Assembly: GCA_007134735.1 (NCBI GenBank)
Contig: SLKG01000006.1
Span: 3,817-67,816, forward strand
DNA: 64,000 nt
Source of the DNA: Kiritimatiellia bacterium
Lineage (GTDB): Bacteria; Verrucomicrobiota; Kiritimatiellia; SLAD01
Direction of reading: 5' to 3'
Positions 56,444-57,246 of the stretch are shown in pieces (positions within the stretch are counted from its first letter, which is position 1; each line of letters opens with the position of its first letter). The translations under genes were made by a program, and so were the position numbers. The notes beneath the pieces are model-generated. The model was given only the letters and a program-made list of their open reading frames with translations. It made no database searches and was not told the origin of the DNA.

Positions 56444-57246
56444 AAGACAAAAAGCAACAGAGGGGGCATCAGCCCGAAAACGACGAAGGGCTGATCCCGA
56501 AATTCGGCGGGTACCGGAACACGAAATCCTGGCAATTGGCCGAGTTGATCTATGATGTCACGGTGCGTTTTTGCGACAAGTTCGTGGATTCAAAGAGCCG
56601 CACCCATGATCAAATGGAACAGGCGGCTCGGAGCGGAACTCGCAATCTGTCCGAAGGAAGCGTGGATTCGGGCACCTCCAAGAAAATCGAAATCAAGCTG
56701 ACCGGCATCGCACTTGGAAGCCTGGATGAGCTGTCCCGGGATTACGCGTCGTTCCTGAAGCACCATGGCCTTCCGGAATGGACGCCCGATCACCCGGCGT
56801 TGGCGCGCTTCAAGGCGTTGCGATGCGCCACGTTCGACCAGTTCCGCGCCTGGGTAACCGACGAGACACGGCGGGGGCAGAACACGGAGAAGAACACGGG
56901 GAAGAACACGGACAAACACGGACTGACACGGACAGGAGGCGGAGACGACATCTTCGTCCGTGTCAGTCCGTGTCGGTCCGTGTCTCCTCCGTGTCGGTCC
57001 GTGTCTCCTCCCTCGCCCTCGCCCAGCTTCAAACGCGTGTTGTCCACCAAAGGGTTTCGCCCTTTGGCCCAAAACGAGATCCGGCCCGCCACGCTGGCCG
57101 GAAACGGCGCGCTTTCCCTCCTCAATCTGTGCATGTACTTCATCAAGCGTCAGATGCAGGCACAGGCCGAGGCGTTCGAAAAAGAGGGCGGCTTTACGGA
57201 AAGGCTTTATCGCCTACGCACACAACAACGCAACCGAAATGGATAG
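56440..57246 (+). CDS. Four-helix-bundle protein (23S rRNA IVS-protein family) with C-terminal suffix domain, interrupted by a repeat-encoded low-complexity insert
   Basis: N-terminal [16 protein letters not shown]...[17 protein letters not shown]...IALGSLDEL matches the four-helix-bundle pattern. The central segment [12 protein letters not shown]...[16 protein letters not shown] is encoded by the palindromic repeat array. Confidence 0.5.
56866..57012. repeat. In-frame imperfect palindrome built from 10-12-bp tandem repeats (5 x ...acacgg... then 5 x ccgtgtc...) inside the four-helix-bundle gene
   Basis: Left arm gaacacggagaa/gaacacggggaa/gaacacggacaa/acacggactg/acacggac. Roughly 24-nt centre. 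Right arm gtccgtgtcagtccgtgtcggtccgtgtctcc... Innermost 14 bp are perfectly complementary. Confidence 0.6.

Follow-up and report, generated by a model that had tools for sequence, protein, structure and literature searches.

The gene at the centre of this study lies within a 64,000-nucleotide stretch (the window) of contig SLKG01000006.1 from the Kiritimatiellia bacterium assembly GCA_007134735.1. It follows the DNA ligase gene ligA, precedes a gene for a metallo-beta-lactamase (MBL)-fold hydrolase, and encodes a four-helix-bundle (4HB) part and a 'suffix' domain joined by a linker. The DNA of this linker is a palindrome whose two arms are arrays of short tandem units. The analysis described below indicates that the segment belongs to a class of foldback-type repeats built of units of approximately 10 nt, whose core reads CACGGAC in one arm (5') and GTCCGTG in the other (3'). 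The coordinates of the features are collected in Table 1.

Table 1. Features of the hairpin element, its host gene, and the adjacent genes (window positions).
Feature	Position	Strand	Remarks
5' arm	56866..56933	+	six ACACGG(A/G/C) units, core (A)CACGGAC; Tandem Repeats Finder rows 56879-56912 (period 12) and 56905-56934 (period 10)
Centre (loop), 22 nt	56934..56955	+	fastest-evolving part of the gene among three syntenic orthologues
3' arm	56956..57012	+	five GTCCGTGTC-type units, including a 21-nt in-frame duplication
Four-helix-bundle + 'suffix' gene, 268 aa, hosts the element	56440..57246	+	open reading frame list, NCBIfam profiles
Bundle part (aa 29-99)	56524..56736	+	matched by TIGR02436 / PF05635 (profile matches)
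'Suffix' domain (aa 218-265)	57091..57234	+	TIGR04258; directly after the bundle, with no linker, in Bacteroidales homologues
ligA (NAD-dependent DNA ligase), upstream neighbour	54425..56443	+	Pfam labels at the syntenic locus L201
MBL-fold hydrolase, downstream neighbour	57252..57908	+	open reading frame list and syntenic loci

An in-frame foldback of short tandem units

The forward motif ACACGG starts at positions 56866, 56882, 56894, 56906, 56916, and 56926 of the + strand, so that the spacing is 16, 12, and 12 nt across the first four units and 10 nt across the last three. The inverted motif CCGTGT starts five times (56958, 56968, 56978, 56989, and 56999), and the duplication in the 3' arm comprises positions 56967-56987 and 56988-57008. 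The periods reported by Tandem Repeats Finder are 12 and 10 for the forward arm and 10, 11, and 21 for the reverse arm. The innermost perfect stem has 18 bp, formed between 56916-56933 and 56956-56973, while the entire predicted stem spans approximately 56870-57018 with about 65 pairs. An earlier note on this DNA, made from the sequence alone, had described the arrays correctly and counted the five inverted copies as we did, but it listed five forward copies instead of six, a centre of about 24 nt instead of 22, and an innermost perfect stem of 14 bp instead of 18.

Positions 56866-57012 comprise 147 nt, that is, 49 codons (aa 143-191) of the host open reading frame (ORF), which stays open throughout and encodes the peptide as the note had written it. 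The RNA of positions 56850-57030 was predicted to fold at -112.1 kcal/mol, compared with -70.5 +/- 4.5 kcal/mol for 200 dinucleotide shuffles (z -9.2), none of which folded as well. When the linker was compared with 30 synonymous recodings of its own peptide, the predicted energies were -129.1 and -85.5 +/- 6.1 kcal/mol, respectively (z -7.1). The motif GACACGGAC occurs six times in the window against 0.59 expected, and five of the six occurrences fall into the hairpin segment, which is also the sole instance of periodic GGAC and GTCC arrays in the 64 kb. The in-frame foldback of decamer units is real and far beyond chance; the sequence and the fold statistics bear out the earlier description of a palindromic tandem-repeat element that occupies the linker from the bundle to the 'suffix' and preserves the reading frame.

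Other explanations of the segment were considered and rejected. It is not an intrinsic terminator because no T-run follows the stem; the 3' arm is continued by CTCCTCCCTCGCCC. Nor does it represent clustered regularly interspaced short palindromic repeats (CRISPR), as the spacers would be just 2-3 nt long. Two antisense ORFs overlap the hairpin on the - strand (56590-57072, 160 aa, and 56790-57146, 118 aa) and encode mirror-image peptides of the form HGLTRT..VRVSPC. We rejected them as genes, since they are mirror translations that arise as a by-product of the palindrome.

The 'suffix' domain of the host protein matched TIGR04258 of NCBIfam at 58.8 bits (cut-off 40), with aa 218-265 covering positions 2-49 of the 49 in the profile. 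The bundle part scored 27.1 bits with TIGR02436 (cut-off 24) and 27 bits with PF05635, whose gathering score is 33.8; profile positions 4-69 of 109 alone were matched. The AlphaFold2 model has confident helices at aa 29-48, 54-75, 81-108, 132-155, 211-249, and 252-267. Between them, the translated hairpin (approximately aa 156-205) has a predicted local distance difference test score (pLDDT) of 41-50. The only structural match of the model found with Foldseek was Xcc0516 (PDB 2GSC), whose fold it resembles; the best alignment, with 2gsc_B, has a probability of 1.00, a template modelling score (target) of 0.60, and a root-mean-square deviation of 1.6 A over 81 columns. The profile match to 2gsc_A was weak (E 0.35), and the defence and phage libraries PADLOC and PHROGs gave zero matches for the host protein.

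The palindrome, not the peptide, is kept

A search for homologues of the host protein found 6936 at E <= 0.001 among 8000 candidates scored. The nearest named homologues belong to metagenome-assembled genomes (MAGs) of Kiritimatiellae (55-58% identity), and all homologues at 55-64% identity carry the same peptide pattern in the linker. Among the 121 closest homologues, the forward-arm peptide was seen in 112 and the reverse-arm peptide in 107. At the level of DNA, arrays of units of about 10 nt were found at the same position of the gene in 80 genome loci (designated with L and a number below) from approximately 18 phyla, counted as the phylum labels of the MAGs concerned. These labels include Kiritimatiellae, Sumerlaeota, Lentisphaeria, Verrucomicrobiota, Planctomycetota, Nitrospirota, several Desulfobacterota, Myxococcales, Chlorobium, Chloroflexota, Acidobacteriota, and Actinobacteriota. 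A large Bacteroidales (Prevotella) branch of the family has no linker, and there the bundle runs straight into the 'suffix': the distance between the motifs RTxDQM and GGxxER is 118-126 aa in this branch versus 149-321 aa in the linker-bearing clade.

The element is ancestral to a clade of many phyla. The earlier note had read the segment in the first place as a small palindromic element inserted into coding sequence, adding that the same segment in orthologues of distant taxa would mark an ancestral linker. Free-standing elements of the same build do exist, as described below, and the Bacteroidales homologues lack the segment. However, since orthologues with about 18 phylum labels, as well as the syntenic loci L201 and L243, carry it at the same position, we give a recent, lineage-specific insertion of a small mobile palindrome practically no credence. 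What holds of that proposal is that the segment is extra relative to the Bacteroidales branch, as the bundle there joins the 'suffix' without a linker, and that small palindromic elements of this kind exist. Because they exist free-standing, a single old insertion is the natural reading, and the element may have been inserted once in an ancestor of the clade.

It should be noted that two pairs of loci whose MAGs bear different phylum labels are nearly identical (0-1 nt of difference in the linker DNA), namely L012 and L016 (Nitrospirae versus Desulfobulbaceae) and L001 and L010 ('bacterium' versus Planctomycetia). They result either from a recent transfer of the whole locus or from a binning error.

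The comparison of the arrays between loci indicated which of their features persist. The units share an invariant core (GGAC for the 5' arm, GTCC for the 3' arm), and their spacing is mostly 10 nt, less often 9. The bases flanking this core vary by clade and agree between the two arms of a locus. Most loci have the flavour CACGGAC/GTCCGTG; the flavour (A/G)TGGAC/GTCCA(T/C) was found in L064, L065, L068, L070, L074, L076, and L079, and AAGGAC/GTCCTT in L066. Because a period of 10 nt shifts the reading frame from one unit to the next, the same DNA unit is translated successively as NTD, HG, and TRT, and different loci enter the array in different reading phases. The flavours yield unrelated peptides, such as NTDxHGxTRT..VRVSPCxSVS and GQNGxxGQ..KSIxSTxS. 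The flavour changes together in both arms, so that the peptides differ while the palindrome persists, and the constraint therefore acts on the nucleic acid. Across 72 loci, the fold of the native linker compared with its synonymous recodings gave a median z of -1.7, with 43% of the loci below -2. We conclude that the feature kept is the DNA or RNA palindrome, not the peptide. It provides a clear case of a coding stretch kept for its nucleic-acid structure over its peptide, at one fixed site of one protein family and across many phyla.

Selection of the NTDxHGxTRT and VRVSPCxSVS peptides themselves, with the palindrome as an incidental consequence, would agree with the recurrence of these motifs in most close homologues. 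We nevertheless consider it extremely unlikely, since in the second clade the palindrome persists although the peptides are entirely different, the phase in which the motifs enter the array depends on the locus, and native linkers fold better than their synonymous recodings. In addition, non-coding copies are common, the AlphaFold2 confidence for the region is low, and the Bacteroidales homologues manage without it. In annotation, the peptides NTDxHGxTRT and VRVSPCxSVS, and similar ones in spurious ORFs, should be taken as translations of the decamer repeat.

Two further comparisons of the arrays are less informative. Pairing of the arms in an ungapped register gave a modest signal (0.50 paired versus 0.37 between loci) because bulges shift the register, and it is not relied on here as evidence. 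Spacings that are multiples of three make up 27% in the coding arrays versus 14% in the free-standing ones (p 3e-4); this excess is confounded by the unit flavour and can at most be considered suggestive.

The substitution pattern was examined in the window gene and its two syntenic orthologues, L201 (87% protein identity) and L243 (77%), both of which have the gene order vanZ-ligA-4HB-MBL or part of it. Variable columns make up 4 of 100 (4%) in the arms, 11 of 18 (61%) in the loop, and 73 of 343 (21%) in the flanking coding sequence. The differences from the flanking sequence are significant for both the arms (p = 1.7e-5) and the loop (p = 4.6e-4). When the differing positions of eight other orthologue pairs were pooled as summed counts, they amounted to 15% of the paired linker, 24% of the unpaired linker, and 16.5% of the rest of the gene. 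Outside the trio, this contrast between the paired and unpaired linker is the only test of arm conservation that holds.

The length of the linker ranges from 84 to 243 nt among the loci, and the frame is open through it in all 73 loci where the gene could be delimited. Relative to the window, L243 lacks one 12-nt forward unit and has one additional 21-nt reverse unit, both changes being in frame, while L201 has the same number of units as the window, and contigs from three different samples encode an identical L201 protein. These data do not agree with the hypervariable segment that the earlier note had proposed as another possibility. They also bear on a contingency locus, in which slippage by 10 nt would shift the frame and toggle the 'suffix' between cells or isolates. 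The inner units are indeed 10 nt long, which is not a multiple of three, and the unit number varies among orthologues. In spite of this, we regard such switching as very unlikely: no frame-shifting change in copy number was seen between close relatives in the compared orthologues, the protein is identical in three samples, the unit count is equal at 87% identity, and only the changes of -12 and +21 nt appear at 77%. The sole truncated variant, L204, looks like an assembly join.

This variant is a 912-nt ENA contig (k141_1326747) that is 99% identical to the window over its alignment with positions 56830-56984 and diverges in the 3' arm after the third GTCCGTGTC unit. The sequence beyond this point belongs to the 3' end of a convergent gene, unrelated and absent from the window, and the ORF of the contig (P0004, 229 aa) ends without the 'suffix'. 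Either the assembler made a join via another array present in the same community, or the variant is real and rearranged.

A wider class of decamer repeats

A scan of metagenome contigs for three consecutive CACGGACNNN units found at least 120 loci. Among those listed, the 4HB-suffix gene is present in only three and a 4HB signature in only one. The free-standing arrays are mostly intergenic, and few of the 131 array clusters in metagenome contigs lie inside credible ORFs. For instance, near-perfect decamer foldbacks at 2058-2139 and 3683-3838 of L158 fill the spacers of a secA-guaB-MBL row and start 13-14 nt past the upstream stop codons, a position that resembles that of repetitive extragenic palindromic (REP) elements. 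An inverted partner was found on the 3' side of 39% of the arrays and on the 5' side of 2%, indicating that the polarity of the arrays is fixed. Arrays are rare in viral contigs (37 matches in 2.9 million). Searches with Rfam returned only sub-threshold miRNA-precursor models for the window, that is, generic hairpins with none at the gathering threshold, and nothing at the arrays of 15 free-standing copies. No description of the 'suffix' domain, the hairpin, or the decamer palindromes was found in the searchable literature. A repeat class of foldback and tandem arrays with a GGAC core, units of about 10 nt, and a fixed polarity is widespread between the genes of environmental bacteria, and no description of it was found in Rfam or the searchable literature.

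Two of the free-standing arrays are extreme. That of L161 (161-334) consists of 18 tandem GTCCG(T/C)GCGG units, and that of L125 (1455-1530) comprises nine or ten units of the AAAGGAC type and lacks an inverted partner. Contig L083 carries an ATGGAC-type and a CACGGAC-type foldback separately (70-168 and 1741-1809, respectively), so the flavour is not fixed per genome. In L142, the Acido-Lenti-1 RNA (RF01687) barely reached its gathering score at 2894-2941 of the - strand, about 2.6 kb from a decamer foldback at 209-294.

With moderate confidence, we read the window segment as an old, domesticated REP-like or foldback-like element that is kept as a nucleic-acid feature and serves as a passive linker in the protein. 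The element would have entered the loop between the bundle and the 'suffix' once, in an ancestor of the clade. Its arms would pair in the operon transcript, in extruded DNA, or in both, forming a stem of about 65 bp that presents a GGAC/GTCC box approximately once per helical turn. Such a stem may act in cis in the manner of a REP element or of the stem of an intervening sequence (IVS). Candidate roles include a site of processing or stability, a pause in translation between the first and the second half of the protein, and a sequence-specific protein-binding site. The protein would merely tolerate the element as a spacer. The number of units drifts by slippage; the DNA changes of -12 and +21 nt within the window-L201-L243 trio are both multiples of three. 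A period near 10 would fit B-DNA slightly better than A-form RNA.

Several results weigh against this reading. A deletion in Bacteroidales would be as parsimonious as an insertion in the other clade. When the arms were compared with the protein domains in the eight other orthologue pairs, the odds ratios ranged from 0.36 to 1.71, so that the slow evolution of the arms seen in the trio is not a consistent feature, and the alignment of repeats can by itself understate the divergence in the arms. About a quarter of the orthologues have no excess folding (z approximately 0), so that some lineages are losing the stem or can do without it. About 60% of the free-standing arrays have no inverted partner within 220 nt, and the working unit may therefore be the tandem array and not the stem. 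Finally, an excess of G-U pairs on the sense strand was not found (240 sense versus 385 antisense), and in 44 of 72 loci the antisense strand gives the more stable fold. A stem-loop of the mRNA acting in cis, as raised in the earlier note, is possible, but no sense-strand G-U signature singles out a role in RNA, and one in DNA is equally possible.

An alternative is a neutral, selfish palindrome with no role for gene or host, which would persist in a linker that tolerates any sequence and be re-perfected by intrastrand template switching and slippage. The missing hairpin signal in about 25% of loci, the lack of strand bias, the wide variation in unit number and linker length, and the lack of a consistently stronger conservation of the arms relative to the domains in the other pairs are in line with it, and the class as a whole behaves like interspersed intergenic repeats. 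Yet the 8-nt core stays the same across the approximately 18 phylum labels while protein identity drops to 40-60%. The low variability of the arms in the trio, the pooled difference between paired and unpaired linker positions, and the fixed polarity of the hairpins also speak against neutrality, and we consider it rather unlikely.

The element was further compared with known repeat systems. REP elements and bacterial interspersed mosaic elements (BIMEs) are extragenic palindromes of enterobacteria and pseudomonads. The free-standing relatives are likewise short, GC-rich palindromes in the spacers of co-directional genes, as seen just past the stop codons in L158, and a role in cis on mRNA is plausible for them. 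Unlike REP and BIME, their arms are arrays of tandem decamers, and the window copy is intragenic and translated rather than extragenic. No GTAG-type REP head or REP-associated tyrosine transposase (RAYT) was seen, although no search was aimed at RAYT, and no transposase-like ORF recurs near the 80 loci. The short tandemly repeated repetitive (STRR) sequences of heterocystous cyanobacteria likewise consist of short tandem units (7-10 nt) in arrays that are interspersed in bacterial genomes; unlike the window element, they are heptamers, are not typically palindromic, and belong to one lineage only.

Rickettsia palindromic elements (RPEs) measure about 150 bp and occur as in-frame insertions in protein-coding genes (review, PMC10969869). 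The window element resembles them in being a palindrome of about 150 bp that lies in frame in an ORF, is translated as an extra peptide tolerated by the fold, and has related intergenic copies. An in-frame translated palindrome of roughly 100-150 bp, as in RPEs, is thus present at the locus (147 nt, 49 codons, z -9.2). RPEs, however, occur in many copies within one genus, in many unrelated genes, and are lineage-specific, and their arms are not made of tandem units of about 10 nt, whereas here one family carries the element at one fixed site in many phyla. The many copies dispersed over unrelated genes that mark RPEs were not found: there is a single array in the 64-kb window, and few metagenome arrays fall in credible ORFs. 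Nor was there polymorphism for presence and absence among the orthologues, the site being the same across the clade and the element missing only in the separate Bacteroidales branch.

The eukaryotic Foldback and Galileo transposons have long inverted arms of short tandem repeats with multiple transposase-binding sites (PMC3688188, PMC3573991). As in the window element, the inverted arms are internally repetitive and the foldback is made of short tandem units, and this likeness suggests, by analogy, that the decamer units could be iterated binding sites. These transposons differ from it in being eukaryotic, of kilobase scale, and linked to a transposase of the P superfamily, no transposase being linked to the element described here.

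Arrays around the gene and its genomic setting

In some of the relatives, arrays are found outside the linker as well. There is an excess of forward units 130-480 nt ahead of the RTxDQM codon and one of reverse units 80-240 nt past the stop codon. In L064 the arrays are nested in the order F1, bundle, F2 R2, suffix, R1 (F, forward; R, reverse). In L033, L054, and L059 a forward array lies in the 5' untranslated region (UTR) and a reverse array stands alone in the linker. The two arrays of each locus are mirror copies, even in their irregular order of units, and they covary in flavour (CATGGAC in L033, CACGGAC in L054 and L059). The duplexes between them were predicted at -90.3, -58.1, and -49.3 kcal/mol in L033, L054, and L059, respectively, compared with -51, -26.5, and -29 kcal/mol for shuffles. 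With these mirror arrays, the bundle ORF occupies the loop formed by a long-range inverted repeat, which is also the layout of a 23S rRNA IVS.

A further system for comparison is that of the 23S rRNA IVSs that encode PF05635 four-helix-bundle proteins (PMC3936711 for the protein family). The window gene appears to belong to the same protein superfamily, and in L033, L054, L059, and L064 inverted repeats bracket the bundle ORF in the way that the stem of an IVS does. The window locus itself differs in that the gene lies between ligA and the MBL-fold hydrolase gene rather than in a helix of 23S rRNA and that both arms are inside the ORF, after the bundle. The association with 23S IVSs that the earlier note had pointed to gains some support from the bracketing arrays of these four relatives. 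Taken together, the window element lacks defining features of each of RPE, REP/BIME, 23S IVS, and Foldback/Galileo.

Such layouts raise another explanation, in which the arrays are the ends of a self-contained cassette that bracket the bundle module or the whole gene in the manner of IVS inverted repeats and are used for excision of the RNase III type from the host transcript or for recombination into resident arrays of a new genome. Apart from the nested and mirror arrays, with duplexes far below the shuffles, and the enrichment of forward units upstream of the bundle and of reverse units after the stop, it agrees with the accessory nature of the gene. Namely, the window, L201, and L243 have it, while the syntenic locus L245 keeps vanZ-ligA...MBL-ftsZ-ftsA with neither the 4HB gene nor an array between ligA and MBL. 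Moreover, 11 of the 80 loci have the order hsdM-hsdS-[4HB-suffix]-hsdR, with the gene inside a type I restriction-modification (R-M) operon, and PF05635 genes have been reported within cas operons (PMC3936711). However, outer arrays were found in a minority of loci only, and the window copy has none, with both arms downstream of the bundle and the gene abutting ligA and MBL. Cutting at the inner stem would leave a stop-less mRNA, and no recombinase or transposase is associated with the gene. On this evidence, we consider bounding or mobility to be an unlikely function of the arrays.

A related proposal, drawn by analogy, is that the 4HB-suffix protein recognises the GGAC-decamer arrays as its cognate nucleic-acid site, so that the gene would carry in its linker the site of its own product. 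Gene and arrays, including the outer ones, would then make up a self-bounded, IVS-like cassette that could lodge, with no need of a transposase, in operons of various kinds (rRNA, type I R-M, cas, housekeeping). This proposal too seems improbable to us; if true, it would provide a function for PF05635 proteins and define a new protein-plus-repeat mobile or regulatory system. To our knowledge, PF05635 four-helix-bundle proteins have no known function outside diversity-generating retroelements (DGRs). The related DGR protein Avd works on the RNA of its own element. PF05635 proteins nevertheless turn up in rRNA, cas, and R-M operons, and a conserved nucleic-acid element located within, and in some cases around, the genes of one branch of the family is a concrete lead towards binding, processing, or mobility.

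One homologue has a layout of its own. The protein P0002 (384 aa), encoded on an NCBI contig of 2442 nt, has the order bundle-bundle-suffix, with the peptide of a forward-only array (NTNRHGRSQAHG) between the two bundles and the full hairpin peptide before the 'suffix'. This suggests that the arrays act as joints of duplication or recombination.

In the plasmid protein search, the sole match to the host protein was a linker-less Prevotella homologue, and the plasmid DNA search gave no match, although the low-complexity filter may have masked the query. The type I R-M loci with the 4HB-suffix gene between hsdS and hsdR are listed as L046 (62-6627), L012, L016, L021, L027, L040, L048, L049, L054, L068, and L076. 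In the window, the ATG of the 4HB gene overlaps the stop codon of ligA (ATGA) and the MBL-fold gene starts 6 nt past the 4HB stop, so that an accessory gene is wedged without spacers into a row of housekeeping genes.

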